From a virus, in the UHGV virus genome UHGV-1372291: a DNA stretch of 37,769 bases; one strand, written 5' to 3'. Shown here piece by piece: positions 3,541 to 37,769 of the stretch. The notes below the pieces were generated by a model. It did no database searches. It saw nothing but the letters and a program-made list of their open reading frames with translations, and was not told the origin of the DNA. The position numbers and the translations under genes are program-made. Position 1 is the stretch's first letter, and each line of letters opens with the position of its first letter.

Positions 3541-6500
3541 TTATTGTAATAATTCTATAACATTTTTAGCTATATTATAGTTAGTTGTATTTATTCCCAT
3601 TTTAATTAAGTTGGTAGCAGCTTTGTCTATATCTCCTTTAGATATATTTTGAATCAAATATGCAGGTCTAACTATTGCCATAGAACCAGTAGTTAAAGCA
3701 TAACTATTTATAATATTATCATCAAAGAAAGTCCATAATGCACTTCCAGGACTATCAACCATATCATTGAATTTATCTATTACAGTTCCTAATGGGTCCT
3801 CATAGAACTCTCCATCTTTTAATAGACTTCCAGCAACAACTACAACTCCTAATTGAATCATATAATTCATCATTCTTTTTTGCCATAATTTATTAGTCCA
3901 GTCCATTTTACCATTATTTACATTTGAATAAAATACATCAGTAGCAAGTCTTCTCCATTGTTCTTGTAGTGATGTCTTGAAAAATCCTGTCATTCTAGCA
4001 AAGTTTCTTCTTACATTATCATTTATCATATCTATTTCATTTCTAGCAGCTGCAGTAGCTTCAGTAGGGGAAATGTCAGATACCATTTTATCATAGAATT
4101 TTGTAACCTTATCTACTATGTCGTTTTTCATATAATTAAATTCATCATCAGTAATAATATCTCCTAGATAATTTTCTATGTCGGTCTTTTTTATACTATC
4201 AGAAAAGCTAATCTCATCATAAAGTTTACTATTTTTAAAGCTTTCTAAGTCTGGAATTTTTTTCATAAATTCAAATTCAAGGCTTCCAATATTTAAATCT
4301 TCTATCATTTTTTTGAAATAGTGTCCTTGAGAATTTAACAACTCATCTAAAGAACTGTATTTAGCAAACTTTTCTAAGTTCATTCCACCTAAAGAGTAAG
4401 CAGCAGCTTTAAGAGCTAATTGTGTATATTGATATAGATTTAATTTATTAAGTCCACTGTCTAAAGCTGAAAGTAGTTTATCTTGGTTGCTTCCATATTT
4501 AATCATTCTAGCTTTTCTATATCCTGTAAAATCATCTAATTCCCCAAGAATAGCATTTACATATTCTATTGGCATGGAGTTTTTAAGTTGTGCCATCAAT
4601 TCTGGTGTGTTATTAACATTCATCATTAAAGCTATAACATTATTCATAACTTGTTTGTAAGTTGTAAAAAATCCATCTCCACCATATCTTGAAATATTAG
4701 CTCTTACCATAGACATAGGTTCCATATACAACTCTCTAAAAGCTTTTGGTCCTGTAAGATTGATTTTACCATAAACAGAAGTATATTTTTTTACAAATCT
4801 GTCTAGTGAAGTTTCAATAGGTTTAGTAATATGTCCTAAATCTCTACCTAATTCAACATCAATATATCCTTCTAGTTCTCTCATGTAAGATTTAAAATCT
4901 CGGCTTAGGGTAGAAGTTTGCAATTCTCCTAATAATTTTTTAAAACCTTTATATCCACCTTGAGGGAAAGTTGATTTTATAGCTTCTGCATTAGAAATTT
5001 CATTTATTAATTTTTGTAAAGCTAATCTTCCATCAACTTTGTTATTGGCAACAAAATCCTTTACTTTAGATTTTTTGATATATCCTCTGTCTATCCAATT
5101 TTCAAATCTACCAAATCTATGAACTGCCGTTTCTTTTAAAGGGTTTTCCTCTGCTCCTTTGTAACTGTCCATATCTTCTGTGAAAGCTCTTCTAGCATTT
5201 TGTTTTTTACTCTCTATATTATTTCTGTCAAAATCTGTTCCAGGTAAATCTTCAAAAAAATCTTTATTATTTTTTAAGAATCTTTGAACTTCTGGATATT
5301 GTTCTAAATTATACTTAGAAATTATTTTAAATCTTTCATCACTTGGAATACAAGTTTTAATTTCTTTTAATCTTTGTATTATTTCATAAGGACTTGGATT
5401 TTCTTTTTTAATTTCAACTTCAAGTCTTTCTACGCTACTCATAAAAAAATCATAATTTCTTTCAGCAAATCTTTCTCTAGGGTCAACAAGTCTTTTAGGA
5501 ACATCTTTACCAGTAACAGGATCAGCAATCAACTCTCCATCTAAATATTTTTGTCCATCAAATTCTTTAGTTAATGTAGTTAAATATTTTTGAAGTTCAT
5601 CTTGAGATAATAACTTTTCAAGACTTAAATTACTATCATAGTTTAAATTGTTATATATATCTTGCACATTAATATCATAATCTTTTGTCAATTCTTTTAC
5701 AGTCTGATATAAAGTTTCTCTAATATCTTCTAGCTTAGGTTGAAGTTCTGCTAATTCATCTGGTAATTTTCTATTAAAACTGAATAAAAAATCTCTTAAA
5801 TCAAATTTATTCTCTTCAAATAAATCTAACATTTTTTCTAAATCAAGTTTTTGACCTTTATAATCTAAAGTAAATAAATTTAATAGTTTAGTTTTACTTT
5901 GCTCTTTAGTTTTTTGGAAAGGTAAAAGTATTTGAGTTTTTAAAAAGTCTTTAGCTCTTCTTGCTTTACCAGATAAATTTTCATTACTTCTATAAATTTT
6001 TCTAAGTCCATCTTTTATTTTAAAATATTTATTTGTTTCAGCTTTCAGCTTAGCTAATCTTTCAGAAACATCAATTTCATTTCCTGTTTCTTTAATTATT
6101 TTTTTAACTGCACTTACATCATCTTTATCTATAACTTTTGGAATATCTAGTTTTAACACTTCTACAAATTCTGGATTCAATTTATCTCCATCAACTAAAT
6201 TGTCCATAGCATTTTTAATAATGTAAGAAAGTTCAAAGTAATCATCAGAGTAATCAGCAAAATGTCCCCTATTAATTCCTTTTAAAACCTCTTCAATAGG
6301 CTTAGCACTATCCATAACCACTGGGTTAAATTCTTTACTTCTAAATTCTGGAGTATTATATAAATCTAAAATATGCTGTATTTCATGTCTTAATACTCCT
6401 ATCTGTGTATCTAAATCTTTTATTTTATCACTGATAGCAACTTGTAAAATCCTACTACCATCTTTATTTTTTTTGATGATAGTTTCTCCTAAGTGTTGAA

Positions 6501-14084: not shown

Positions 14085-14783
14085 TTACCTTTCATTTTCT
14101 TGTGCCTCCTCTAGTATAATATTTTTCTTATACTTGTAATATGTATTCTTAGTTATCCCTAGCAGTGTAAAGACTTCTATATCTTTAAGATTTCCTCCAA
14201 AATCTTTAGCTAGTTTTTTAATTTTCTCTCTCATCTCCTTTTCTTTCTTGGTAGTATAAGTATCTCCTTGTTTTCTACCTAATACAGTTCCTTTAGCTTT
14301 GGTAACTCTTAGTCCCTCTTTTGTTCTTTCTCTAAGGTCTAATACTTCCTTTTCAGCCTGGTCAAATGCTATTTTAATTTGTTCTTGAGCTAATATCTTC
14401 AATACTTCATTGGTTGCGTCTATGTATATATCAGCTATTTTATTTCCTGTTGAATCTATTTTGTTTTCTAAAGCCTTTTTATAAAGGGCTGTGTTAATAT
14501 ATCCCTCTTTTAAAAATATAAGTTCAATATCTCTTTCTACAAAATTAAAATATTCTTTTATTCCCTCTTCTGCATTTCTACTCATTCTACTAACAGAATC
14601 AAATACAATTGTATCTCCAGGTTTAACTATTTTTTTTAGTTTACTCCATTCTTTCCTATCTGTTGTAGTTCCTGTGTATGCTTCTTGAAATACTTTAGCA
14701 GTTGGATATATCTTTATGATATTTTCCACCTGTCTTAAAATATTTTGTTTTTTTGTAGATACTCTGCAATAACCATATATCAT
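14085..14783 (-). CDS. small serine recombinase (resolvase/invertase family: Hin/Gin/Cin or plasmid resolvase type)
   Basis: N-terminus 'MIYGYCRVSTKKQNILRQ' (catalytic-Ser motif YxRVST). 'GDTIVFDSVSRMSRN'. Arm 'AEKEVLDLRERTKEGLRVTKAKGTVLGRKQGD'. C-terminal HTH 'LLGITKNTYYKYKK'. Confidence 0.8.
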   Translation of the reverse strand: MIYGYCRVSTKKQNILRQVENIIKIYPTAKVFQEAYTGTTTDRKEWSKLKKIVKPGDTIVFDSVSRMSRNAEEGIKEYFNFVERDIELIFLKEGYINTALYKKALENKIDSTGNKIADIYIDATNEVLKILAQEQIKIAFDQAEKEVLDLRERTKEGLRVTKAKGTVLGRKQGDTYTTKKEKEMREKIKKLAKDFGGNLKDIEVFTLLGITKNTYYKYKKNIILEEAQENER

Positions 14784-21545: not shown

Positions 21546-21759
21546 TTTCTTCTTTTGCCTCCTTTGTAAATATCTCAATATATAAACTATTTGCTCCTGT
21601 TATCTCCTTTACTTTACCTGTTGTATCAACTCCTTTTTCATTCATGATAGAAACTCTATTGAGTTCGAGCATTAAGTATAGTTCGATTAGTCTTTTTAAA
21701 GCTCCATCATCTCTATATCTTCTCTTTAACTCTTCGTACTCTTTTCTCTCTACTGTCAT
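21538..21759 (-). CDS. hypothetical small head-module protein (73 aa)
   Basis: ORF overlapping the portal stop (ATGA) and the scaffold start. Confidence 0.35.
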   Translation of the reverse strand: MTVERKEYEELKRRYRDDGALKRLIELYLMLELNRVSIMNEKGVDTTGKVKEITGANSLYIEIFTKEAKEEND

Positions 21760-23267
21760 TGCTCTATCATTCCCCCTTGTTGTTGTGCAGCTATCATAGC
21801 ATTCATTTCCTCAACTTGCTTTTCTGTTTCCTCTCCAGATTTCCACTCTTTGTTATTGATTCTAAACCTTTTTTGTTGAGCATTTATGTATTCTGCTTGG
21901 TTCATATTAGCTGCTGCAACTTGAGGTCCCAGAGTGCTTGCTATATTTTGGAAATACAACATATTTCTTTCAAGGTCATCTTGGTCTTGTGCTATTGTTA
22001 GTGCATTGTAGAATCTTATCTTTAATCTTGGATTTTCCTGTAAAGCTTTAATTTTAGATATATCTATAATGCTAATCTTTTGTAGACATTGGAAAACTTT
22101 TATAACTATCTCTCTTAAAAGTTCCCTTTGCATTAGTGCATATGTTGGCTCTATTTGCTTAGCGAACTCTGTTGTTACTAGCTGTGTTGTTGTAGCAGTA
22201 ACATTCTTTAGCTGGTCTAAGTTTTGAGCCGTTTCAAATATGTTGATGTAGAATATATCTCTTAAAAGTTCCTTGTACATATCCAGGTTAAAGAACTCCA
22301 TGTTAGCATTCTCTCCCCTGTTGAAAGGTATTATTTGATTTTGCCCTGGGGATTGTCCCATCATAGATATAGCTCCTGGCTCATCTATTCTTGAGTTCTG
22401 AATATATTTAGCTTGCCCATAACCTAAATAGCTTGGTCTAGCCTGTTTCTTAGCAATACGTCTGATGTTAGCTTTAACTTCTTTTAGCCCCTCAATCTCC
22501 ATTATCGCTTTAACACAAGGTCCTATACCATATGGACTATCTCCAATGCTTTCGTATCTAGCTATTATCCAAGGGTTATAGTCATCAATTCTATAATCTA
22601 AAATATCTGTAAACTCATTTGAAGTAGATACTACATAGTGAAACATTTTAGTTTCTTGGTCGTATATTGTACCTTCCCACAACTCAATCTCGTCATCTTG
22701 CGACATACTTTGAACTTTTTCAGAGTTATAAGCATTTTCTCCAAAAAGATTAAGAATCTGATGTTTTCTCACTTTACCTGCATTGTAGAATGTATCTCCA
22801 GGTTGTTTACCTCTTCTTTTAGTAAGATAAACATTTATATTGGGTACTGGTTGAAATTCCACAGGATTTGCAATTTTACCAGTAAATCTAACTTTGAATA
22901 CTGCTGTTCCTATTAGATAGTCCATAAGAATTACAGCTTTCTCTGTTTCAAAGTTAGAATTTTCTTGAATCTCATCAAATACTATTTCTGTTATTCGTCT
23001 AAAGATAATCTTGTCATCTCTTGATATATCTTCAAACCTTGGTGTTTCTATCCAAGCCCAGATATGATTACTATTAAGTATCATAGCTGATAACTTGTTA
23101 GCTAACTTAGTAGCATATGCTAGTCCTGTACTGTCTACACCATTTAAATTAATTTCTCTTGGTAGAAAATGTGTTCTAGCTTTCAAATACCAAGCTAGTA
23201 TTACATTTCTTTCCTGTTGTGCCTCCTGGAATCTACTACGAAATAGATTTTTAATTCTATCTTCCAT
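21756..23267 (-). CDS. portal protein
   Basis: 503 aa, directly upstream of the scaffold and capsid genes; size and position fit a portal. No catalytic motifs are expected for this protein. Confidence 0.55.
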   Translation of the reverse strand: MEDRIKNLFRSRFQEAQQERNVILAWYLKARTHFLPREINLNGVDSTGLAYATKLANKLSAMILNSNHIWAWIETPRFEDISRDDKIIFRRITEIVFDEIQENSNFETEKAVILMDYLIGTAVFKVRFTGKIANPVEFQPVPNINVYLTKRRGKQPGDTFYNAGKVRKHQILNLFGENAYNSEKVQSMSQDDEIELWEGTIYDQETKMFHYVVSTSNEFTDILDYRIDDYNPWIIARYESIGDSPYGIGPCVKAIMEIEGLKEVKANIRRIAKKQARPSYLGYGQAKYIQNSRIDEPGAISMMGQSPGQNQIIPFNRGENANMEFFNLDMYKELLRDIFYINIFETAQNLDQLKNVTATTTQLVTTEFAKQIEPTYALMQRELLREIVIKVFQCLQKISIIDISKIKALQENPRLKIRFYNALTIAQDQDDLERNMLYFQNIASTLGPQVAAANMNQAEYINAQQKRFRINNKEWKSGEETEKQVEEMNAMIAAQQQGGMIEQ

Positions 23268-26015: not shown

Positions 26016-26240
26016 TTATTTAACTAAATCAGCAACTGAAACATCAAGAGCATTTGCTAGTTCAAATAAAGTTGATGTTGTTATCCCGTCGCCTTTTTCT
26101 AATTTTTTTAGTCTATTATGCACATTCTGGGGAGTAGTCCCAGTTTTTCTAGCTAATTCACTAGAATTTATTTTTTTCACTTCCATTTCTTTTAAAATAT
26201 TTTTATAAATTATTAAATTAAAATATTTAATTCCGTTCAT
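26016..26240 (-). CDS. XRE-family HTH transcriptional regulator (Cro-like, 74 aa)
   Basis: 'INSSELARKTGTTPQNVHNRLKK' is a canonical HTH_XRE helix-turn-helix. Confidence 0.65.
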   Translation of the reverse strand: MNGIKYFNLIIYKNILKEMEVKKINSSELARKTGTTPQNVHNRLKKLEKGDGITTSTLFELANALDVSVADLVK

Positions 26241-26395
26241 TATATACCCTATTTTTATTTTTTTATATATATTTTTAAACCATTTTAATTATATTAATAA
26301 CTTAAAAATTTAATAAAGTCAATATTTATTTTTTATATAAAAATAAAAAAGTTATAAAAACATTCTATTTTTCTAGCTTTTCAAAAGATAAAAAA

Positions 26396-26430
26396 TATAT
26401 AAAAAAGAGGAGAAAAAAATTCTCCTCTTG
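26396..26430 (-). terminator. rho-independent terminator after 26467..27198
   Basis: AGAGGAGA-aaaaaat-TCTCCTCT with a T-run on the minus strand. Confidence 0.55.
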
Positions 26431-26466
26431 TTTATTCTTGTGATAATTATTTTATTTCTTTATTTT

Positions 26467-27198
26467 TTAAATAATTTCTAATTTTAAAATCATTGTTTCT
26501 TCTTTAGGGTCTAATATTACACAAATTGTTAATTTATAAGTTTTTAAATAATCATATTTTTCTAATTTGGTTATATCAGTTATGATATACTCTTCTCTTA
26601 AAGTTTCATCTTTCACATACATTCCTGTTTTTTTGATAGTAAAATCTTTGAATTCTTTTTCTAATTCTATATTCAATCCTGCAAATAATGAAGCATAATA
26701 AAATTGTGCCAAACCTTTATTGTTTATATTTTTATGATTAAATTCTGGGGTTTTATATCTTGCAATTTTAAAATAAACAATATTATTTTTATCAATAAAG
26801 TTATTAATCATATTTTCTATTTTTGAGCTTTTATTTCTCAAAAATAAATCAAGAAATTTGTTAAACTTTTCTTTTTCCTCTTCAAATAAATTTTCAAAAA
26901 TGATTTTATCTACCTCTTCTGTTTCATTAAATCTAGATATTATCGAGGTTTCCCCTGTAGTTTCACTAGGTATTTTTATTTCATAATCATAAACGCCTTT
27001 TTTATAATTACTCTTTTTTTCTTTTTCTTTTCTTTCTTGTTCTTCACGTTCTTTTCTTTGTTTATCCCATTTTTCCATTTTTCTTACTTCTATCTGGTCA
27101 TGAATGAAAGCCCAAACAGAAGCTATTGCCAAAATAAAAATAGCTCCAACAATCGTTTCTCCTACTAAATAAATCAACTCATTTAAACTTCTTATCAT
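26467..27198 (-). CDS. membrane-anchored protein (N-terminal TM, charged coiled-coil, C-terminal domain); candidate superinfection-exclusion/abortive-infection factor
   Basis: TM 'LIYLVGETIVGAIFILAIASVWAFI' followed by a KE-rich stretch. Co-oriented directly downstream of the repressor-like HTH gene. Confidence 0.4.
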   Translation of the reverse strand: MIRSLNELIYLVGETIVGAIFILAIASVWAFIHDQIEVRKMEKWDKQRKEREEQERKEKEKKSNYKKGVYDYEIKIPSETTGETSIISRFNETEEVDKIIFENLFEEEKEKFNKFLDLFLRNKSSKIENMINNFIDKNNIVYFKIARYKTPEFNHKNINNKGLAQFYYASLFAGLNIELEKEFKDFTIKKTGMYVKDETLREEYIITDITKLEKYDYLKTYKLTICVILDPKEETMILKLEII

Positions 27199-27221
27199 AT
27201 CCCCGCCTTTATATATAACCG

Positions 27222-27539
27222 TTATTGTTTTAAAAATTTAATAGCATCTAACATATGATTTAATTTTTTATTCTCTTCTTTTAATCTTTTTACCTCTTCT
27301 ATCATTTCTGGGCTCATTCTATCGAAGTTCCAAGCTTCCCATGCTTCATTAGTTTCTTTCTCATTCAATTTTAAAAACTCTATTATTTTTTGCCAAGTTT
27401 CATATTTAGCAGTCTTTTTCCCATTTCTCATATAACTTAAATATACTTGGCTTATTCCTGCATACTCTGCCATATCTTTTAAATTTACATTTTTAGCAAC
27501 TGAATATTTTTTTAAAAAAATCTCTGTATTAGTCATCAT
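27222..27539 (-). CDS. XRE-family HTH repressor-like protein (CI-like position)
   Basis: 'NLKDMAEYAGISQVYLSYMRNGKK' HTH. Divergent from the consensus early promoter. Confidence 0.55.
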   Translation of the reverse strand: MMTNTEIFLKKYSVAKNVNLKDMAEYAGISQVYLSYMRNGKKTAKYETWQKIIEFLKLNEKETNEAWEAWNFDRMSPEMIEEVKRLKEENKKLNHMLDAIKFLKQ

Positions 27540-27641
27540 AACACCTCGTTTTTACACTTTTTTATTTATATTATAGCACAAGCTATTAAATTTAGTAAAT
27601 AACCTAGTTTTTATTTTTAAACTTTTTTATTTAAAAAACTA

Positions 27642-27670
27642 TTGACAAATTAAAAAAAATTCTATATAAT
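27642..27670 (+). promoter_or_regulatory. sigma70 consensus promoter (TTGACA-17-TATAAT) for rightward early operon
   Basis: ttgaca at 27642-27647, exactly 17 nt, then tataat at 27665-27670. RBS aggag at 27723 and ATG at 27736. Confidence 0.7.
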
Positions 27671-27735
27671 TCAATTAAGAAATTAAACTAAAAGGTTTAA
27701 AATAATAAACCTTTAAATTTATAGGAGTTGGTAAT

Positions 27736-28251
27736 ATGAAAAAATTATTAAATTATTTAGGGTGCAGAAGTAAACAAGACTTAATATATCAATTTAAAAA
27801 TAGCGATTCCGAAGAGATAGCAGAGTTGAGAATGGCTTTTGAATTAATAGCAGAGGATAGAGTAATGGATGATGAAATAAGATTAAAAGATAAGAAAAGT
27901 TTACTTGATTTTCTTAAATTCAAAGTAGGTTTTAAAGAAAGAGAAGAGTTTGTAGTAATTTTCTTAAATAATTACAACGTAATGACAGGATATGAAGTAT
28001 TATTCACAGGAACAATAGATAAAAGTGCTGTATATCCAAGAGAGATAGCAGAAAGAGTTTTTAAATATAAAGCTAAGGGAGTAATATTTGCACATAATCA
28101 TCCAAGCGGAAATTTAAGACCAAGTAAGCAAGATATTCAAATAACAGAACATATGCAAGAGTTCCTGGAAATGATAGATGTAAAACTTCTTGAGCATATA
28201 ATTATCACAAAAGATGGACATTTTAGTTTTTTACAAGAGGGAATAATTTAA
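27736..28251 (+). CDS. RadC-like JAB-domain protein
   Basis: 'FAHNHPSGNLRPSKQDIQITEHM' contains the RadC/JAMM HNHPSG signature. Confidence 0.75.
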   Translation: MKKLLNYLGCRSKQDLIYQFKNSDSEEIAELRMAFELIAEDRVMDDEIRLKDKKSLLDFLKFKVGFKEREEFVVIFLNNYNVMTGYEVLFTGTIDKSAVYPREIAERVFKYKAKGVIFAHNHPSGNLRPSKQDIQITEHMQEFLEMIDVKLLEHIIITKDGHFSFLQEGII

Positions 28252-28320
28252 GTTTTTATAGGTTCCCCAAGAGCCTTGGGGTACTTATTAAAAACTTAAA
28301 AGGGGGCGGTCAATATGACT
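28246..28320 (+). repeat. hairpin+RBS intergenic cassette, copy 1
   Basis: taatttaAGTTTTTATAGGTTCCCCAAGAGCCTTGGGGTACTTATTAAAAA...ggcggtcaatATGACT. Perfect 7-bp stem CCCCAAG/CTTGGGG. Confidence 0.7.
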
Positions 28321-28515
28321 GATGAGCAAATTAGATTTTTTATAAAAGATTATATTTTACCAGAGATTAGAAAATACAAATCTGAAAGTATAGAAGTATT
28401 TTACAAAGAAAAAAATGGTGTCTATACAGTTAGTATAGATGGCAAAGAATTTAAAGATTCTGATATTAAATCTTGCCTAGAAGAAGCAAGAGGATATTTT
28501 AAGGGGTGGTTCTAA
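28315..28515 (+). CDS. hypothetical small protein (66 aa)
   Basis: ORF starting MTD... immediately after cassette copy 1. Confidence 0.4.
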   Translation: MTDEQIRFFIKDYILPEIRKYKSESIEVFYKEKNGVYTVSIDGKEFKDSDIKSCLEEARGYFKGWF

Positions 28516-28694
28516 TGTCACAAGATGTAATGTTCTTAAAATATATCAATGAGAAATGGGGAGTTCTTACAGTAAGAAGATTTAAAAAATTTTATATAGT
28601 AAATGCTGGAGAGTTCCACGGATATGGTTTAACAGTATCTGAAGCGATAGCAAATTTAGCACTTAATAATCAAGAGGAGGGAAAACTATGTTAG
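28506..28694 (+). CDS. hypothetical small protein (62 aa)
   Basis: Overlapping ORF in the early operon. Confidence 0.3.
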   Translation: MVLMSQDVMFLKYINEKWGVLTVRRFKKFYIVNAGEFHGYGLTVSEAIANLALNNQEEGKLC

Positions 28695-28963
28695 ATAAAG
28701 AATTATTAGAAGGATTTGAAACAATGCAACAATTACAAGATGATGGACTAATTGATTCTTACAATTATAACTCAAAGACAGGAGATTTTATGGTATTTTC
28801 TGGACTTGGTAAAAAAGAAGTTAAGTTCCAGGTGGATATGGATAGTATGATGGAGTTTTTAGAAGAATGGGAAAAAGAAGTTGAAGAAGCTTTTCAGGAT
28901 AAAAAAAGAGAAGAGCAAGACAGAGAAGCAGCTTACTGGGCAGTCCAAGGGGTTAGATATTAA
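28688..28963 (+). CDS. small highly acidic protein (91 aa), candidate DNA-mimic/anti-restriction
   Basis: Very acidic composition (many D/E); early-region location. Confidence 0.3.
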   Translation: MLDKELLEGFETMQQLQDDGLIDSYNYNSKTGDFMVFSGLGKKEVKFQVDMDSMMEFLEEWEKEVEEAFQDKKREEQDREAAYWAVQGVRY

Positions 28964-29030
28964 TGATAGCTTGGATAAAACATATATTAAAATTCAAAAT
29001 TAAATATAGCAAAATGTAGGGGGAATAAAA

Positions 29031-29279
29031 ATGTTAGCAGTAATGATGGAGAATTTAAAAGAAAAATACAGTATTAAAAATTTAGCTTGGGAGATAAAAA
29101 ACAATATAGTTTTCTTTAGTGGAGAACTTAAAAAAAATATAGTTGCTGGATATGTAGGAGAAAAACCAGTAAGTTATGAGAAAAAATTAGATTTTAATAG
29201 CTTTAGGGTAGCAGATGAAAAAGTAGAAAAAGAAATTGATGACTTTTTCCAAATGCTTGAAAATGTTTTTAATAAATAA
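29031..29279 (+). CDS. hypothetical small protein (82 aa)
   Basis: ORF with GGGGGA RBS. Confidence 0.35.
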   Translation: MLAVMMENLKEKYSIKNLAWEIKNNIVFFSGELKKNIVAGYVGEKPVSYEKKLDFNSFRVADEKVEKEIDDFFQMLENVFNK

Positions 29280-29352
29280 TTTAGTTTTTATAGGTTCCCC
29301 AAGAGCCTTGGGGGACTTATTAAAAATTAAATTGGAGGTGGTCTTTATGACT
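29276..29352 (+). repeat. hairpin+RBS intergenic cassette, copy 2
   Basis: taatttAGTTTTTATAGGTTCCCCAAGAGCCTTGGGGGACTTATTAAAAATTAAATTGGAGGTGGTCTTTATGACT. Confidence 0.75.
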
Positions 29353-29484
29353 GATGTTAGATTAGAAAGACTTGATAATTACTTTGATGAGGAGCTAGAA
29401 GAAGTTAGAGAAGCTGCAGCAGATATGACAGAAAAAGAGCTTAGAGAATTTTTAGAACTTTTAAATATTGAGGAGTGGTTTTAA
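29347..29484 (+). CDS. 46-aa acidic protein (MTDVRLERLDNYFDEELEEVREAAADMTEKELREFLELLNIEEWF)
   Basis: ATG 29347 is supplied by cassette copy 2. The ORF-track extension back through the cassette (from 29236) is unlikely to be translated. Confidence 0.4.
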   Translation: MTDVRLERLDNYFDEELEEVREAAADMTEKELREFLELLNIEEWF

Positions 29485-29996
29485 TGGCAAATATAATAAA
29501 TTTATTAGAGGACAAATTAGCATTAAATGAACTTTGGGAAAATTCCATTGATGAGAACACAGGAGAAATAAAAGAGTGTGAAGCTTTAGAGGCTTTAACA
29601 AAAGAAATAGAGCAAGATTTGAGCAGCAAAACAGGTAGAATTATACAGGTATTCCAAAATAATAAAGCACAAATAGAGGTGCTGGACAAGGAAATAAAAA
29701 GGCTTGAAGCTAGAAAAAAATCTTTAGAGAATAAAGATAAAAATTTTAAAAACTTTTTAAAATATACTCTTGAAAGAATAGGAGTAAAAAAGATAGATAC
29801 TATCTTTGGAATAATAGGAATAAAAAATAATCCTGCAAGTGTAGAGCTTATAGACAAAGACAAAATACCTGCAGAATTTAAGACAATAAAATATGTTGAA
29901 GATATTTCAAAAACTGAAATTTCAAAAGCTTTAAAGGCTGGGGTAGAAGTTCCAGGAGCAGAACTTAAACAAAGTACAAGTTTATATATAAAATAA
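29484..29996 (+). CDS. siphovirus Gp157-like / coiled-coil recombination-associated protein
   Basis: Start MANIINLL (TAATG overlap, GAGGAG RBS). ~170 aa, helical. Lies immediately upstream of the SSAP, as Gp157-family genes often do. Confidence 0.3.
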   Translation: MANIINLLEDKLALNELWENSIDENTGEIKECEALEALTKEIEQDLSSKTGRIIQVFQNNKAQIEVLDKEIKRLEARKKSLENKDKNFKNFLKYTLERIGVKKIDTIFGIIGIKNNPASVELIDKDKIPAEFKTIKYVEDISKTEISKALKAGVEVPGAELKQSTSLYIK

Positions 29997-30069
29997 TTTA
30001 GTTTTTATAGGTTCCCCAAGAGTCTTGGGGTACTTATTAAAAATTAAATTGGAGGTGGTCTTTATGACT
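29994..30069 (+). repeat. hairpin+RBS intergenic cassette, copy 3
   Basis: taatttAGTTTTTATAGGTTCCCCAAGAGTCTTGGGGTACTTATTAAAAATTAAATTGGAGGTGGTCTTTATGACT. Confidence 0.75.
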
Positions 30070-30687
30070 AAAGAAAAATTTCAAGAAATGTATTTAAAAG
30101 ATTTAACAGGTATGATAGAAACAGTAGACACAGGAAAAAGAAAGCTATCATATATTAGCTGGGCTAATGCTTACAAAATGGCTATGGAGCAAGACCCATC
30201 AATGAGTTATGAAATATTAGAAGATTTAGAGGGGTTTCCTTTATTCTCAAGAGGGGATTGCCACTTTGTAAAAACTACTGTTACTATGTTTGGAGTAACT
30301 AAAAAAATGATGTTACCTATCATGGACAATAGACATAATTCTATAAGCAAACCTAACAGTAGAGATATAAACGACAGTATAATGAGATGTCTTGTAAAAA
30401 ATATAGCAATGTTTGGTATAGGACTATCATTATACACTGGAGAGGATTTGGAAAAGTATAAGGAATCTAAAGAAGATAAAGAGGTTAAGGAAGTTGAAGA
30501 GCAAATTACACCAGAAGAGAGGGCTAAATTTATAGAAGTTATAAACAAAAAATACTCTAAAGAGGATATAGACAAGGCTATATACTTAGTTAAGGAAAAT
30601 GGTAGATTTGAATTTAATATCTACACAGCAAGTAAAAAAGAATTGAACTATTTAAAAGCAACTTTAAGAAGTTTAAAGACTGCATAA
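30064..30687 (+). CDS. Rad52/Sak-like single-strand annealing protein (DUF1071-like)
   Basis: 'LSYISWANAYKMAMEQDP' resembles the conserved SYxSWA motif of Sak/Rad52-like phage SSAPs. Start MTKEKF at 30064 follows cassette copy 3. Confidence 0.4.
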   Translation: MTKEKFQEMYLKDLTGMIETVDTGKRKLSYISWANAYKMAMEQDPSMSYEILEDLEGFPLFSRGDCHFVKTTVTMFGVTKKMMLPIMDNRHNSISKPNSRDINDSIMRCLVKNIAMFGIGLSLYTGEDLEKYKESKEDKEVKEVEEQITPEERAKFIEVINKKYSKEDIDKAIYLVKENGRFEFNIYTASKKELNYLKATLRSLKTA

Positions 30688-30696
30688 AATAAAAAT

Positions 30697-30723
30697 GGCA
30701 GGTTTATTCCTGCCACTTTTATT
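30697..30723 (+). terminator. rho-independent terminator of the early operon
   Basis: GGCAGG-tttatt-CCTGCC followed by acttttatt. Confidence 0.6.
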
Positions 30724-31060
30724 AAAGAATCTTGAATAACATATGACGATTAAAAAAGCATCTTATATGGGGTTAAAAATCTGGATACAGTAGTATAATA
30801 TACTTTTAGGTATAAGTCAATATCTTTTTAAAATTATAACACTGTGAAATTTTGTCAAAGTAATTTTTAAGTATTTATTTTATTGGTTTTTATAGTGTGA
30901 AGTTTTGTCAGTTAAAAACTACAAAATCCAGAATATAACTACATATAATTTTATAATTGTAGTTAATTCTTTTCCCTTTTAGAAGAATCTTTATTCTTTT
31001 ATTCTTTTATATATTTCGGCACCTTCAAAAGCTAGAAAAAAAGCCACTTTATAAAAAGAT

Positions 31061-31181
31061 AAAGGTACAAAATCCAACTTTCAAAGGTACAAAATCCAGA
31101 AAATAAAGGTACAAAATCCAACTTTTAAAGGTACAAAATCCAATTATAGAAGGACAAAATCCAATTATAAAGGTACAAGAT
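31061..31181 (+). repeat. iteron array of plasmid-type origin (6 direct repeats, 22-bp period)
   Basis: AAAGGTACAAAATCCA(A/G) starts at 31061, 31083, 31105 and 31127. A degenerate copy is at ~31149 and a partial one at 31169. An extra copy is at 31295-31311, and an inverted half-copy (TGTACCTTT) is at 31220-31228. An AT-rich stretch spans 31180-31290. Confidence 0.75.
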
Positions 31182-31316
31182 ATTTTATAATGTACTTTTA
31201 ACGACATTTATTAGAATGATGTACCTTTATTATAAATTTATATAATAGTTAAAAACTTAGTGTAAATAGGGGTTGAAGAGTATTTTAAAAAGATAAAGGT
31301 ACAAAATCCAGAAAAT

Positions 31317-31361
31317 AAAGGTACATATATATTGACATTGTACCTTTGATTAAGTTATACT
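31317..31361 (+). promoter_or_regulatory. rep promoter with operator palindrome AAAGGTACA-N13-TGTACCTTT overlapping -35 TTGACA
   Basis: Perfect 9-bp inverted repeat made of iteron half-sequence. Embedded ttgaca at 31332-31337 and a tatact -10-like element at 31356-31361. Confidence 0.55.
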
Positions 31362-31390
31362 AAAATTAGTGAAATTTTTGGAGGGAATAT

Positions 31391-32515
31391 ATGAGTCAAG
31401 AAAAATATAATCTAATACATCATAAAGATTTCCATAATCTCCAATTACAAAATTATTCAGTAAAAGAAAGAGCAGTTTTTTTAGCTCTTTGCTTAAAGAT
31501 TATGGAACAGGAAGATGAAGTTGTAACTTTTAAAGTTTCAGAGATTTCAAAAATTGCAAATTATTCTGCAAGAAAAAAAGGAGATAATATTTATAGTTTT
31601 TTAAAAGAATTAAGTGATAAGCTTTTAAAATTACAGGTTATGCAAATAAGAAAAGATGAAGGATTTACAAATATGGTCTTGTTTCCAACCTTTTCAGTAG
31701 ATGAGAAAGAAAAAACAGTTAGAATAAGAATAAATCCAGACTATAAATATTTGTTAAATCATTTACAAGCTCCTTATACAATTCAAGCTTTGATAGAATA
31801 TTCTAATTTAAAATCTGGATATTCACAACTAATGTATTCTATTTTGAAAAAGTGGAATAAAATAAAAAAAGTAACTATAACTCTTGAAGATTTTAGAAGA
31901 GAATTAGGAGTTCCAGAAAGCTATGATACAGCAGTTATAAATAAAAGAGTATTGCCTCCTATTATGAAAGAGTTACCACAATATTTTGAAGGTTTGAAAG
32001 TAAAAAAAATAAAAGATGGTAAATTTATAAGTGGGTTTGAGTTTACCTGGAAAGATAACAAGGTTGATGATGTAGTAGTTGATGAAGAGGAAATAGAGAT
32101 TTCAGAAGAGTTACTATCAGCTATCGAGAAAGCAGAGAAAAATAGATTTATAAAACCTTTCTTAACTGATGATAATATAATAAAACTTTTAGATAAATTT
32201 AGCCAAGAGCAATTAGAAAAAGGATTGAAAGCTGCTTATGATTTAATTAAAACAGAATTTACAAGTCTTAATTATTTGATAAAAGTTATTGAAGATAGAT
32301 TGAATAAACCTAAAAGAAAAATAGTTATAAGAAGAACTAAGGAAGCAGAAAAAATAAAAGAAGTTGAAGAGCCAGTAGTCAAGAAAAAAACAACTCCACT
32401 AACTAATGAAGAATATCAAAATGCTATGAAAATATATCAAGCTACTGGAGAGGATTTTGGTTATGAACCAGAGGAAGTAAGAGAGTATATAAAAAAATAC
32501 AAGGATTTAATATAG
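31391..32515 (+). CDS. rep: iteron-binding replication initiator (Rep_3/RepB-like)
   Basis: N-terminal 'NLQLQNYSVKERAVFLALCLKI' matches the Rep_3 NxLxxAxYxLSxxExRL motif. Placed immediately downstream of iterons and an AT-rich region. Confidence 0.65.
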   Translation: MSQEKYNLIHHKDFHNLQLQNYSVKERAVFLALCLKIMEQEDEVVTFKVSEISKIANYSARKKGDNIYSFLKELSDKLLKLQVMQIRKDEGFTNMVLFPTFSVDEKEKTVRIRINPDYKYLLNHLQAPYTIQALIEYSNLKSGYSQLMYSILKKWNKIKKVTITLEDFRRELGVPESYDTAVINKRVLPPIMKELPQYFEGLKVKKIKDGKFISGFEFTWKDNKVDDVVVDEEEIEISEELLSAIEKAEKNRFIKPFLTDDNIIKLLDKFSQEQLEKGLKAAYDLIKTEFTSLNYLIKVIEDRLNKPKRKIVIRRTKEAEKIKEVEEPVVKKKTTPLTNEEYQNAMKIYQATGEDFGYEPEEVREYIKKYKDLI

Positions 32516-32524
32516 GGGGGTAAA

Positions 32525-33283
32525 ATGAAAATAATATCATTCATAACAGAAAAAGGTGGCACTGGTAAGACTACTGGTGCCAGAGAAGTTGCTGGGGTAT
32601 TATCTCTAGTTCATAACAAAAAAGTTTTGCTTATTGATTGCGACTTTCAACAAAATCTAACTGAAAGTTTAATAGAAGCAGACCAAGAAAAAAATATATT
32701 TAGAGCTATAAAAGAGAAAGATTTAAAAGGAAATATAATTCCTATTGAAAGAGATGGAAAACATATATTAGATTTAATACCTGCAAGTCTTAATTTAAAG
32801 GATTTAGAATATAAAAAAGATAGTGTTGATATGGAGATGATTTACCTGGATTTAAAAAGGGGACTAGAGCAACTCCAAGAATATGACTATATAATTATAG
32901 ATTGTAGACCAGATATGAGAGCAATAGAAAGGGCTGTGTTAAAGTGTAGTAATTATGTTATCACTCCTGTTGAAGCTCATCTATTTAGTTTTAGAGGGTT
33001 TGAATTATTGGAGAACTTTATACAAGCTCTTAAAAAAGATTTAAACACTCCATTCATTCATTTTGGTTATATAAATAGGCTACAAAATGATAAAGAGATA
33101 TTAGAAGCCACTGAAGATGTCAGAAATTCTTTTGAAAACATATTAGATACTCCTATAAGAGATAATCTTAAAATATTTAAAGCCTCACAGACAGGACATT
33201 TTATAATAGAATATAGTTCTACATCAAATGGGGCTAAGGATTTTAAAGCTCTTACAAAGGAGTTGTTAAATAAATGGCAATAA
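32525..33283 (+). CDS. parA: ParA/Soj-family partition ATPase
   Basis: Deviant Walker A 'KGGTGKTT' at the N-terminus; 252 aa. Confidence 0.8.
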   Translation: MKIISFITEKGGTGKTTGAREVAGVLSLVHNKKVLLIDCDFQQNLTESLIEADQEKNIFRAIKEKDLKGNIIPIERDGKHILDLIPASLNLKDLEYKKDSVDMEMIYLDLKRGLEQLQEYDYIIIDCRPDMRAIERAVLKCSNYVITPVEAHLFSFRGFELLENFIQALKKDLNTPFIHFGYINRLQNDKEILEATEDVRNSFENILDTPIRDNLKIFKASQTGHFIIEYSSTSNGAKDFKALTKELLNKWQ

Positions 33284-36538: not shown

Positions 36539-37074
36539 AAAATGTTTGGGTATTTAAAAATTTCTGTCCATTTAAAGTAGGAGATATCTACTTAACTACT
36601 AACTCCACTAATCCAAGTTCTATATTTTTAGGTACTACTTGGCAGAAAATAGAAGGTAGATTCCTACTTGGTACTTCAGGTACTGGAGCTAGTAAAGCTA
36701 CTGGTGGTAGTAACTCTAAGACTATTGCTCAAGCTAATCTTCCTAATGTCAAACTGACTGTTAATAGTTTTTCTTTATCAAGAGGAACTATGGATATTAC
36801 AGGGATAACACCATGGGGCCCTTATCGTTCAGAAGCTGATAATAGTGGAAAACCTCAACCAAAAGGTTCTTTTTATTGGAATAAAGAACAGGCTGGACAA
36901 TACTTTCCCGCTGGACTTAGAACTGAAAGTGCTAGATTAGCATTCCAAGCTTCAAGAGCTTGGACAGGAACTACCAACACAGCTCAACCTCAAACAGTGA
37001 ATTTAGGTAGTGGACAAGCTTTAGATATTACACCTTCTTACTATACAGTTCATATGTGGCTTAGATTAACTTAA
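36539..37074 (+). CDS. promoterless, start-less alternative tail-fibre C-terminal segment (Sv'-like)
   Basis: The open frame begins right after a stop at 36536-36538 with no usable start codon. It encodes NVWVFKNFCPFKVGDIYL...GTTWQKIEGRFLLGTSG...ANLPNV...HMWLRLT, paralogous to the C-terminus of the minus-strand fibre 37066..>37769 (KNFCPFPVNSLYL...GTTWAKQEGRFLLGSS...ANLPSHTH...NIWKRLS). Confidence 0.6.
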
Positions 37075-37540
37075 TCTTTTCCATATATTTACGACCAAAT
37101 AAGGTGGCATAATAGAGAAAGCTGTTCCACTTCCTGTACTTCCTATTGAAGTTACTGGAGAGGCACTTCCTGTTGTTTCTCCTCCAGCACTAGAGGCTGT
37201 TGCAGATGTTTCAGGATAATTTTCTCTCCAAGGAAAAGAAGGTCCTTGTGTCCCAGCCCCAGAATAACCTCTAGGTAATGTTAGTGTATGTGTATGTGTT
37301 GGTTGAGTATGAGTATGAGCAGCAGTAGTTGCACTATGTGTATGACTAGGTAAATTAGCAACAGATAGTTTAACAGTGCTAGCTCCACCTGTACTACCTA
37401 AGCTATAACTAGAACTACTACCTAGTAAAAATCTACCCTCTTGTTTAGCCCAAGTAGTACCTAACCAAAGGATAGATGGATTCTCACTACCTAAGCTAAG
37501 ATAGAGAGAATTTACTGGGAAAGGACAGAAATTTTTAAAT
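36552..37540. mobile_element. candidate invertible DNA segment (tail-fibre host-range switch) bounded by exact 18-bp inverted repeats
   Basis: ATTTAAAAATTTCTGTCC at 36552-36569, and its exact reverse complement GGACAGAAATTTTTAAAT at 37523-37540. Both lie inside coding sequence in the same reading frame (encoding FKNFCP). Confidence 0.55.
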
Positions 37541-37769
37541 TTCTCATCAACTTCTGTTTCAAGTGCATATATGCTTAAATCTGGTTTATTTATTAGTTTT
37601 TCATAATCAGTAGTTCCAGGTTGACCGTTTTGTCCTGGTATCCCTTGTTGACCTCTAGGGGCAGTAAAATCATATGTGCTACCATTAGTTAAAGTCACAG
37701 CATAAACATTTCCACCATCTTCATTAGTATTCTTAAATGTTATACTTTTTACTCCTACTCCATCAGCTC
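37066..37769 (-). CDS. tail-fibre protein with collagen-like segment and phage tail-collar-type C-terminal domain; 5' part beyond the window
   Basis: The frame is open to the window edge (ADGVGVKSITFKNTNEDGGNVYAVTLTNGSTYDF...). 'GQQGIPGQNGQPGT' collagen triplets. 'ANLPSHTHSATTAAHTHT' and a C-terminal 'MPPYLVVNIWKRL' are typical of tail-collar domains. Confidence 0.65.
   Translation of the reverse strand, partial: ADGVGVKSITFKNTNEDGGNVYAVTLTNGSTYDFTAPRGQQGIPGQNGQPGTTDYEKLINKPDLSIYALETEVDEKFKNFCPFPVNSLYLSLGSENPSILWLGTTWAKQEGRFLLGSSSSYSLGSTGGASTVKLSVANLPSHTHSATTAAHTHTQPTHTHTLTLPRGYSGAGTQGPSFPWRENYPETSATASSAGGETTGSASPVTSIGSTGSGTAFSIMPPYLVVNIWKRLS

Follow-up and report, generated by a model that had tools for sequence, protein, structure and literature searches.

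A predicted sense-strand RNA helix at the gene joints of a phage-plasmid early operon coincides with points of module exchange

Introduction

Why does a phage early operon carry almost the same short sequence at three of its gene borders, each time between a stop codon and the next start codon? The question is raised by UHGV virus genome UHGV-1372291, a stretch of 37,769 nt that we call the window and to which all coordinates refer. In its early operon, three hairpin-Shine-Dalgarno (SD) units lie between gene blocks, on the + strand only. A preliminary description, made from the letters of the sequence, saw in each unit the stop codon of one gene, a 7-bp hairpin, a ribosome-binding site and the first two codons of the next gene; it likened the units to the promoter early stem-loop (PeSL) elements of T4-like phages, through which gene modules are shuffled. 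Here, the units are compared with their counterparts in related viral and metagenome contigs. On the evidence of this sequence comparison, the element is a conserved joint that is predicted to form an RNA helix in the sense strand, and it is also a crossover point of the modular early operon.

Results

The three units are near-identical copies with unrelated flanks

The 29-mer TTTTTATAGGTTCCCCAAGAGYCTTGGGG matches at 28253, 29285 and 30002, each time on the + strand; these three matches in the window compare with none in 100 dinucleotide-preserving shuffles. A repeat search of the window returned the same three-copy family, and a search of the window with the covariance model R1, described below, did not add a fourth member. 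When 81 nt were compared, copies 2 and 3 proved identical at 77 of 81 positions (95%), and copy 1 agreed with each of them at 66 of 81 (81%). The 80 nt on either side of the units are 24-40% identical, which is the background for sequence of 30% GC. The presence of three near-identical units between unrelated flanks, as first described, was thus confirmed.

All joints and start regions described here lie on the + strand. Hairpin joint H1 (28245-28302; covariance-model match of 79.4 bits) holds the stop codon of the upstream RadC gene (28249-28251) in the 5′ base of its helix and is followed at 28301-28317, as read from the sequence, by the SD AGGGGGCGG, a spacer and the ATG of gene a, which lies 13 nt past the model end. 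In joints H2 (29277-29334; 78.2 bits) and H3 (29994-30051; 76.7 bits), the first helix bases are the stop codons of gene d (29277-29279) and gene f (29994-29996), respectively. The SD GGAGGTGG, the spacer TCTTT and an ATG follow in both, for gene e at 29334-29349 and for gene g at 30051-30066. Copy 1 deviates in its 3′ third, where its SD is accompanied by the spacer TCAAT. Hence the shared ribosome-binding site with TCTTT that had been ascribed to every unit is a property of copies 2 and 3, and the same holds for TAATTT as the upstream stop: it contains the stop in copies 2 and 3, whereas in copy 1 its TAA is out of frame and the in-frame stop is the TAA at 28249-28251. The start ATGACT follows all three copies, as stated in that description, and the positions bear out the view of the units as gene joints made of upstream stop, hairpin, SD and start.

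The sense strand is predicted to fold into a long, covarying helix

Folding was predicted for 86 nt around each unit on both strands. Each unit folds as one long helix, running from AATTTAG... to ...TTAAATT, with 24-27 bp, a 3-nt loop and one bulged U in the 3′ arm in the window copies. The fold energies of the three copies were -29.4 to -32.7 kcal/mol on the + strand (z about -5) but only -17.8 to -23.3 kcal/mol on the - strand, where the fold is weaker because several pairs are G:U. The 7-bp hairpin with the loop AGC that had been noticed at first is real in that CCCCAAG and CTTGGGG pair, but it is part of a larger predicted fold: AGTTTTTATAGGTT and ACTTATTAAAAAYTWAA, which flank CCCCAAG-AGC-CTTGGGG, pair too and bring the helix to its full 24-27 bp. 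The helix begins at the upstream stop codon and stops 0-3 nt short of the SD. The conserved element comprises 58 nt, and the predicted folds leave the SD and the AUG unpaired.

Two alignments of copies from related contigs were examined. The first comprised 20 distinct copies with a 25-pair structure, in which 96.1% of cells were paired and 10 pairs had compensatory changes; R1 was built from it. The second comprised 34 distinct high-scoring copies from about 45 contigs, with 24 pairs. Here, 96.7% of cells were paired, and compensatory changes, in which both sides change, occurred in 10 of the 24 pairs. None of 500 shuffles reached any of the five measures used, and pairing fell to about 62% when the partner was slid by one column. 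The covarying pairs belong to the apical stem and the outer base, the parts that the search pattern had left free. Across copies, the predicted folds have arms of 24-27 nt and loops of 3-8 nt. The apical stems differ wholly between lineages yet pair in each (CCCCAAG/CTTGGGG, TTTTCCAAT/ATTGGAGG, CTATGATT/AATCATAG and CTGCGATTAA/TTAATCGTGG); we therefore conclude that pairing itself is under selection.

The 34 copies contain 93 G:U cells versus 5 A:C cells, with one G:U pair nearly invariant (33/34 copies), and R1 scores about 30 bits lower on the - strand. This bias, together with the lower - strand score, indicates that the selected structure forms in the sense strand, most simply in mRNA. The bulged U is invariant, and the sequence of the lower stem is near-invariant across copies. 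Selection on all 24 pairs, the outermost included, and on the G:U pair and bulged U suggests that the unit of selection is a long double-stranded RNA. The comparison shows the predicted helix to be a conserved, selected structure of the + strand transcript, always at the stop-to-SD position but for one contig described in the following section.

The element keeps its place and orientation in related contigs

Exact-pattern scans found the unit in six IMG/VR contigs; with the looser pattern TTTTATAGGTT-N13-26-ACTTRTTAAAA, another six viral contigs and more than 20 metagenome contigs were added. In total, the element was found in about 45 related viral and metagenome contigs, and R1 recovered additional, more divergent copies within loci already collected. 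Longer viral contigs of other lineages (L007-L012) also carry it, beside neighbor genes that look different (YqaJ-like, replication-protein-like). In nearly all strong copies the upstream stop falls at model position -6 to +5, and an SD-preceded ATG follows 11-19 nt past the model end; the gene pairs concerned are many and unrelated. All copies point the same way as the genes that flank them, and orientation and stop-to-SD placement are strict over about 60 copies. The exception is contig L086 (RCNH01001721.1), a more distant relative, where two copies (2361-2470 and 5171-5290) end a gene and are directly followed by strong promoters of the sigma-70 type, TTGACT-17-TATTAT and TTGACA-17-TATCAT, in a PeSL-like composite of hairpin and promoter.

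It had been proposed to look for the unit in Fusobacterium phages and plasmids. BLAST of the 88-nt unit against GenBank phages and PLSDB gave only chance matches (E about 0.06-1), and with the whole 3.9-kb region as query nothing beyond short matches at gene level was returned. R1 run with filters off on Fusobacterium phage Funu2 and on a Cetobacterium plasmid with a related JAB-domain gene returned weak generic hairpins of <=27 bits. In the genome scan, the strict hairpin pattern had zero matches; the 26 genome loci found with the looser pattern (L014-L039), one of them in a Fusobacterium genome, were rejected as chance, none having the conserved helix of the family. No Rfam family matched the units, and the one chance-level match in 27000-31500 at E <= 1 lay away from them. 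Literature searches for the element or the phage-plasmid found no relevant description.

Homology between relatives breaks at the units

Pairwise BLAST comparisons of the early region of the window with four close relatives placed the ends of homology at the joints. Against L001, homology ends at 29345, just before the ATG after H2, and against L005 its limit is the 3′ end of H1 (28304). Against L002, homology begins with the 5′ end of H1 (28248), and against L003 at 28515, where L003 has a unit.

The order of gene blocks was then written in letters, with [H] for the hairpin, A for RadC and B for a DnaJ-like protein of 148 amino acids (aa), which takes the position of module A in L002, L003, L128 and L143-L152. 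The letters a to g stand for the window genes described below, e′ for an acidic open reading frame (ORF) of 31 aa, h for a YqaJ exonuclease (PF09588) and i for a 319-aa protein without family assignment. Nine architectures were found in all, which mix A or B with abcd, bcd, none or others, and with ef[H]g or e′hi. Four of them begin with A: A[H]abcd[H]ef[H]g in the window and L156-L158, A[H]bcd[H]ef[H]g in L155 and L160, A[H]abcd[H]e′hi in L001/L161, and A[H]e′hi in L005/L159 and L162. The others are B[H]abcd[H]ef[H]g in L002, B[H]bcd[H]ef[H]g in L128 and L144-L149, B[H]bcd[H]e′hi in L003, L143 and L150-L152, B[H]x-bcd[H]ef[H]g in L006, and B′[H]y[H]bcd′[H]ef[H]g in L004. Block a-d is thus present, cut to b-c-d, or absent in relatives, and H2 separates two alternative recombination modules, one with the Gam-like and Sak proteins and one led by the YqaJ exonuclease. 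That the units mediate modular shuffling, as had been suspected, is upheld by breaks in homology within a few bases of them and by nine architectures that differ in whole blocks; among related viral and metagenome contigs, the unit does flank different cargo genes.

One relative places a crossover within the repeat. L005 equals L001 minus the H1-H2 interval (genes a-d), with sampled 500-nt flanks on each side 100% identical. Its surviving hairpin has its 5′ foot from H1 and its 3′ arm from H2, and basal pairs are lost in the chimeric foot, which points to a crossover inside the identical core of about 30 nt. The same a-d-deleted form was met in samples independent of it (ERZ1756023 and ERZ915998), and an assembly artifact is therefore less likely.

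Smaller variants tell how the copies exchange sequence. Some are private to a genome and shared by its joints: in L004, H2 and H3 both carry AAAAGCC, and in L006 both have a GGAA loop with GTT. One and the same joint has different internal variants in different genomes, and markers within the hairpin reassort without regard to the flank on either side. Private variants within genomes together with differences between genomes suggest homologous gene conversion rather than exchange at a fixed point.

Many relatives lack gene a (66 aa), as seen in L003 (4273-4345), L128, L155 and L160 when set against window positions 28290-28520. The hybrid SD region CTTAAAGGGGGGTGGCAATATG of relatives lacking gene a resembles a crossover of the SD after H1 with the similar SD of the a/b junction; the SD regions thus serve as exchange points too, which accounts for the loss of gene a.

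Overall, a role of the units in recombination, as marks of the points at which modules are exchanged, is well supported by these comparisons. Rad52-like single-strand annealing proteins recombine short, diverged homologies efficiently (PMC3945230), and gene g, which encodes a Rad52-like protein of the Sak type and adjoins H3, is a plausible catalyst of exchange at such short homologies.

Modularity was also noted upstream of the operon. The immunity region (window 26016-27539) varies as a module in L143-L152 and L155-L162, with either a LexA-like repressor with helix-turn-helix (HTH) and Peptidase_S24 domains (216-218 aa) or small HTH proteins (101-104 aa), the kind that the window has. These immunity variants reassort with Rep3, of which there are two types (374 and 319 aa), and with ParA, which also comes in two (252 and 269 aa).

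The early operon and its genes

A sequence scan found a single 12/12 promoter (27642), a single canonical terminator (30696) and no promoter in the units, and the early operon between these two points reads as what would be one transcript. The putative early promoter (TTGACA-17-TATAAT; 27642-27670, + strand) matches the consensus at 12/12 positions, is the best match of the scan and faces RadC; back to back with it lies an HTH repressor-like gene on the - strand (27222-27539). The scan found no promoter-like site inside any of the three units, and by eye no TTGACA-like hexamer was seen 16-18 nt from TAAATT or TATTAA. A 9-bp inverted repeat, AAAGGTTTA...TAAACCTTT, lies in the 5′ leader at 27691-27714, past the early promoter and ahead of the start of RadC, and could be an operator or a leader hairpin.

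The genes of the operon all lie on the + strand. Module A encodes a RadC-like JAB protein of 171 aa (27736-28251; PF04002, E = 2.5e-39). Beyond H1 comes the cargo block a-b-c-d (28315-29279), whose products of 66, 59, 91 and 82 aa, that of c being acidic, have no family match; a and b are joined by a TAATG overlap, and b and c overlap by 7 nt. Between H2 and H3 (29347-29996), gene e (45 aa, acidic) and gene f (170 aa, Gp157 / Mu Gam-like; PF05565, E = 9.3e-35, phrog_253) are likewise joined by a TAATG overlap. Gene g, for the Sak-type (Rad52-like) single-strand annealing protein (PF06378, E = 3.4e-34), follows H3 at 30064-30687. ORF calls with TTG starts at 29236-29484 and 30025-30687, which cross H2 and H3, are regarded as artifacts, the plausible starts being the SD-preceded ATGs at 29347 and 30064.

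Another type of joint was noticed inside the modules, at 28499-28517 and 29468-29486. Both have the form GG(G/A)GTGGTT(C/T)TAATG, in which the stop overlaps the following ATG, and the upstream proteins end in ...GWF* and ...EWF*. These two joints are nearly identical, which suggests another reusable coupling sequence.

The operon is closed by a 174-bp linker (30687-30859, + strand) that contains the canonical terminator, with its stem at 30696-30715 followed by CTTTTATT (T-score 2.27). This linker is 94.8% identical in L001 and L005 despite different genes on both sides and, by this comparison, appears as a second conserved crossover patch, situated between the recombination and replication modules.

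Two of the small ORFs had been singled out as very acidic and as candidates for DNA-mimic anti-restriction proteins. Their acidity is evident: ORF c (28688-28963, 91 aa) has an isoelectric point (pI) of 4.27 and a net charge of -12, and ORF e (29347-29484, 45 aa) a pI of 4.05 and a net charge of -11. The proposed function found no support. Neither ORF had a Pfam or PHROG match, ORF c fell into only 3 protein clusters among 5.8 billion proteins, all without a name, and its single-sequence AlphaFold model was poor (predicted local distance difference test score, pLDDT, 62.8). ORF e always lies directly upstream of the Gp157/Gam-like gene; this constant place, with the TAATG overlap in the window, suggests that it is a member of the recombination module.

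The window resembles a complete phage-plasmid

At about 37.8 kb, the window appears to be a complete phage-plasmid. Its plasmid part (31056-33939) has five 22-bp iterons (31056-31332), a Rep3 initiator (31391-32515), ParA (32525-33283) and a ParB-like gene; its phage part includes a podovirus-type portal (21756-23267), a terminase-like gene and other virion and lysis genes. Its identity with the portals of deposited phages is only 23-24%, whichever phage is taken. The index lists the exact sequence of protein c (91 aa) for 338 collection blocks, of which many are contigs of roughly 37 kb; this indicates that the phage is common, and two sampled contigs with protein c are labelled as human-gut metagenome.

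A host in the Fusobacteriaceae is suggested by three weak lines: the Rep3 protein is 36-42% identical to proteins of Cetobacterium and Fusobacterium plasmids, there are weak nucleotide matches to F. vincentii and phage Funu2, and the GC content is 30%.

Inside the virion gene block, on the - strand, lies the gene of a small serine recombinase (14085-14783; Resolvase N-terminal, PF00239, E = 7.8e-20), the product of which could act in plasmid multimer resolution or as an invertase. One end of the window encodes a collagen triple-helix repeat protein (PF01391) and the other a collagen-like Gly-X-Y ORF (225-1604; 37066-37698), and a 9-bp periodic DNA repeat family with 20 registers occupies 17-750. 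The collagen-like genes probably encode tail fibers, and a circular permutation of the contig may run through them.

Discussion

A proposed role for the helix in the early transcript

Helix length, covariation and strand-specific G:U pairs are consistent with each of the roles first suggested for the hairpin, as an RNase III site, an attenuator or a stabilizer of the transcript, attenuation being the least favored. We propose that the element acts between cistrons in RNA processing or stability, as a substrate of the RNase III type, and is at the same time a homology patch for module exchange, a combined reading to which we give slightly better than even chances. The joint would be transcribed as part of one early operon, and its sense RNA would fold into the helix of 24-27 bp. 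Because the joints share 30-80 bp of near-identical DNA, recombination between joints moves whole blocks, as the comparison of relatives shows: homologous recombination and gene conversion, within and between co-infecting genomes, delete, insert or replace the block between two joints while leaving every gene undamaged. The phage annealing proteins, Sak with the Gam-like protein, or else the alternative YqaJ exonuclease module, would probably help.

The helix itself would be kept for a post-transcriptional reason, a long and nearly perfect double-stranded RNA being the type of substrate that RNase III takes. Whether cut or simply present at a 3′ end, the helix would divide the polycistronic early mRNA into segments, each with a stability of its own. 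The downstream segment would start just before a strong SD, and a ribosome near the new 5′ end would shield it from RNase J-type decay, an arrangement also known from the early region of T7 and the early mRNA of SP82. RNase III needs roughly two helical turns, RNase III sites lie between early cistrons of T7 and SP82, and a strong SD near the 5′ end protects against RNase J-type decay. The helix is longer than these two turns (24-27 bp, with 96.7% of cells paired in the 34 aligned copies). RNase III is expressed in F. nucleatum (PMC11039985), and RNase III work on SP82 early mRNA is cited in PMC4838370.

Several points weigh against this proposal. Processing, stabilization and even co-transcription of the operon are what we infer from the sequence, and RNase III is assumed to be present in a host that is itself inferred. 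The hairpins of L086 stand directly before promoters, the usual place of a terminator, and a terminator scan with loose rules flags copies 1 and 3, these two only. The invariance of the lower stem is partly imposed by the collection pattern, which required the lower stem. Selection for intact genes alone could concentrate breakpoints at the joints, yet the crossover in L005 lies inside the repeat.

Weighing the alternatives

The scan result and the layout of L086, where two copies at gene ends precede promoters in the classical terminator-promoter order, would suit hairpins that are attenuators or terminators, the stem-loop half of a PeSL, which would lower expression along the operon or be overridden by an antiterminator, with recombination as a by-product; PeSL stem-loops were shown to terminate (PMC2839356). 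We nevertheless find this unlikely, although it and the protein-binding or translational role considered next are the live rivals. The T-tail after the upper stem, ACUUAUUAAAAA, has a T-score of 0.93, and that after the whole helix 0.29, versus 2.27-4.12 for three terminator tails of the window and 1.54 for a fourth, these four being the ones scored, and most copies begin the tail with G/A-A-C. On these scores, the element was rejected as an intrinsic terminator, in which a G+C-rich stem should pass directly into a U-tract. Covariation keeps all 24 pairs, even the outermost, a pairing that terminators do not need, and the 12-30 nt that precede the ATG of genes e, f and g contain no promoter, so that transcription must read through. 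A quite improbable reading, in our judgment, is that the helix serves as an operator for an RNA-binding protein or as a translational coupling device that controls the adjacent SD. The helix ends 0-3 nt before the SD, and with the stop codon in its 5′ base the terminating ribosome must open the lower stem; the near-invariant G:U pair, the invariant bulged U and the near-invariant lower stem resemble a recognition surface. Part of that lower-stem invariance, however, comes from the way the copies were collected, neither SD nor AUG is paired in the predicted folds, and Pfam and PHROG brought up no candidate RNA-binding protein among the operon genes. The helix of L086 precedes a promoter and a distant SD and is thus not tied to a start site.

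Other readings place the function in DNA or deny one. Integron attC sites are likewise imperfect inverted-repeat hairpins 3′ of promoterless cassettes, with a conserved stem base, a variable center and extrahelical bases, and the element shares with them its seat at cassette-like gene boundaries, its conserved lower stem, variable apex and conserved extrahelical base, as well as the gain and loss of blocks exactly between hairpins. DNA hairpins tolerate G:T wobble too, so that the strand bias alone would be compatible with a folded single-stranded DNA element, either an attC-like, structure-specific recombination site or a single-strand initiation signal of the plasmid. We nonetheless consider such an element most improbable. 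An attC site needs the IntI tyrosine recombinase and R and L boxes, and it folds as bottom-strand DNA; here, Pfam found no tyrosine recombinase, IntI-type or other, among the 30 window ORFs scanned, only the serine resolvase at 14085-14783, and the R-box consensus is absent, no GTTRRRY standing at the stem base. Independent reassortment of markers and variants shared within a genome fit homologous gene conversion, not fixed-point exchange, and attC was rejected for this reason as well. In L007-L012, the operons have different-looking neighbors, so that the element appears not to be tied to one replication module, and its exact stop-to-SD placement points to gene expression. We attach very little probability to the bolder version, in which the hairpins would be dedicated, structure-recognized exchange sites and the early operon an integron-like, phage-borne cassette array; small accessory and possibly anti-defense genes would then be captured, lost and reordered between hairpins by the phage annealing and exonuclease proteins or by an unrecognized enzyme acting on the folded strand. 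Finally, the repeat might be functionless, a selfish or hitch-hiking linker or a recombination scar that promotes its own duplication. The 95% identity of copies 2 and 3, which includes the SD and first codons as if from recent copying, would fit, as would the lack of an Rfam match. Yet distant lineages keep the helix with different apical sequences, which requires selection on pairing, and orientation and stop-to-SD placement are strict over about 60 copies; we therefore think it very doubtful that the repeat does nothing.

Comparison with known systems

To our knowledge, the RNase III sites of T7 and SP82 are not known as points of module exchange. Such sites, set between early genes, were reportedly found in T7 and Bacillus phage SP82 by Dunn and Studier and, in 1983, by Panganiban and Whiteley. 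They share with the present joints hairpins that are repeated between early cistrons, stems of sufficient length and a product near a strong SD. Their cleavage is demonstrated, whereas it is predicted here, and internal loops direct single cuts at the T7 sites, whereas the helix described here is almost perfect, with one bulged U. Among lambdoid phages, boundary or linker sequences at module junctions are said to have been described by Susskind and Botstein in 1978, Juhala and colleagues in 2000, and Clark and colleagues in 2001. These short conserved sequences likewise join unrelated modules and were proposed as sites of homologous exchange, but they are generally not repeated several times per operon and are not covarying structured RNAs.

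PeSL elements are defined by a strong sigma-70 promoter and a stem-loop terminator (Arbiol et al., 2010; PMC2839356). In T4-type phages, they form a repeated intergenic cassette of stop, stem-loop, SD and start (PMC2839356; Comeau et al., 2014, PMC4122927), and the likeness extends to the small ORFs without known function that they flank and to G-T pairs in the stems. As here, a stable stem-loop stands between the upstream stop and the downstream SD and start, and recombination from copy to copy explains insertions, deletions and replacements between close relatives. PeSLs differ in having a strong sigma-70 promoter with an AT-rich upstream region and an effective terminator, each starting a new transcript; the units have no promoter, a weak T-tail, and a helix of 24-27 bp instead of a short G/C stem. 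PeSLs occupy hyperplastic regions of T4-like genomes, whereas the units lie inside one operon of a phage-plasmid of roughly 38 kb. The L086 relative does pair its hairpin with a promoter in PeSL-like fashion. Identity with PeSLs, the first comparison made for these units, is not supported: all three lack the promoter feature and have a weak T-tail, and the unit is therefore not a PeSL.

The closest architectural analogue is found in the start-associated sequences (SAS) and extended SAS (ESAS) of Cluster K mycobacteriophages, whose function is unknown and which occur in many copies per genome in one orientation (Pope et al., 2011; PMC3203893). They, too, have an imperfect inverted repeat, with a short spacer that varies, immediately before a conserved ribosome-binding motif and a start codon, and their conservation follows the downstream gene family, in likeness to the units, but there is no homology. 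The 13-bp SAS consensus GGGATAGGAGCCC bears no likeness to the SD regions of the window. ESAS repeats have 17 bp, RNA covariation has not been demonstrated for them, and no role in module exchange has been reported (PMC3203893); the units, in contrast, have arms of 24-27 nt, clear compensatory changes and an association with breakpoints.

Implications

Phage mosaicism has been debated between homologous exchange at short linkers and random joining followed by selection, and the present case is an unusually clean, natural one. Its strength lies in a structured 58-nt joint that is repeated in one operon, in nine block combinations from gut metagenomes, and in a crossover inside the repeat. The element is also a candidate RNA motif with good covariation, absent from Rfam, from phages that probably infect Fusobacteriaceae, a clinically watched family whose RNA biology is little known. 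As natural landing pads, the joints would lend themselves to phage-plasmid engineering, and, since they mark the turnover of accessory genes, they point to where new genes of phage-host conflict may lie.

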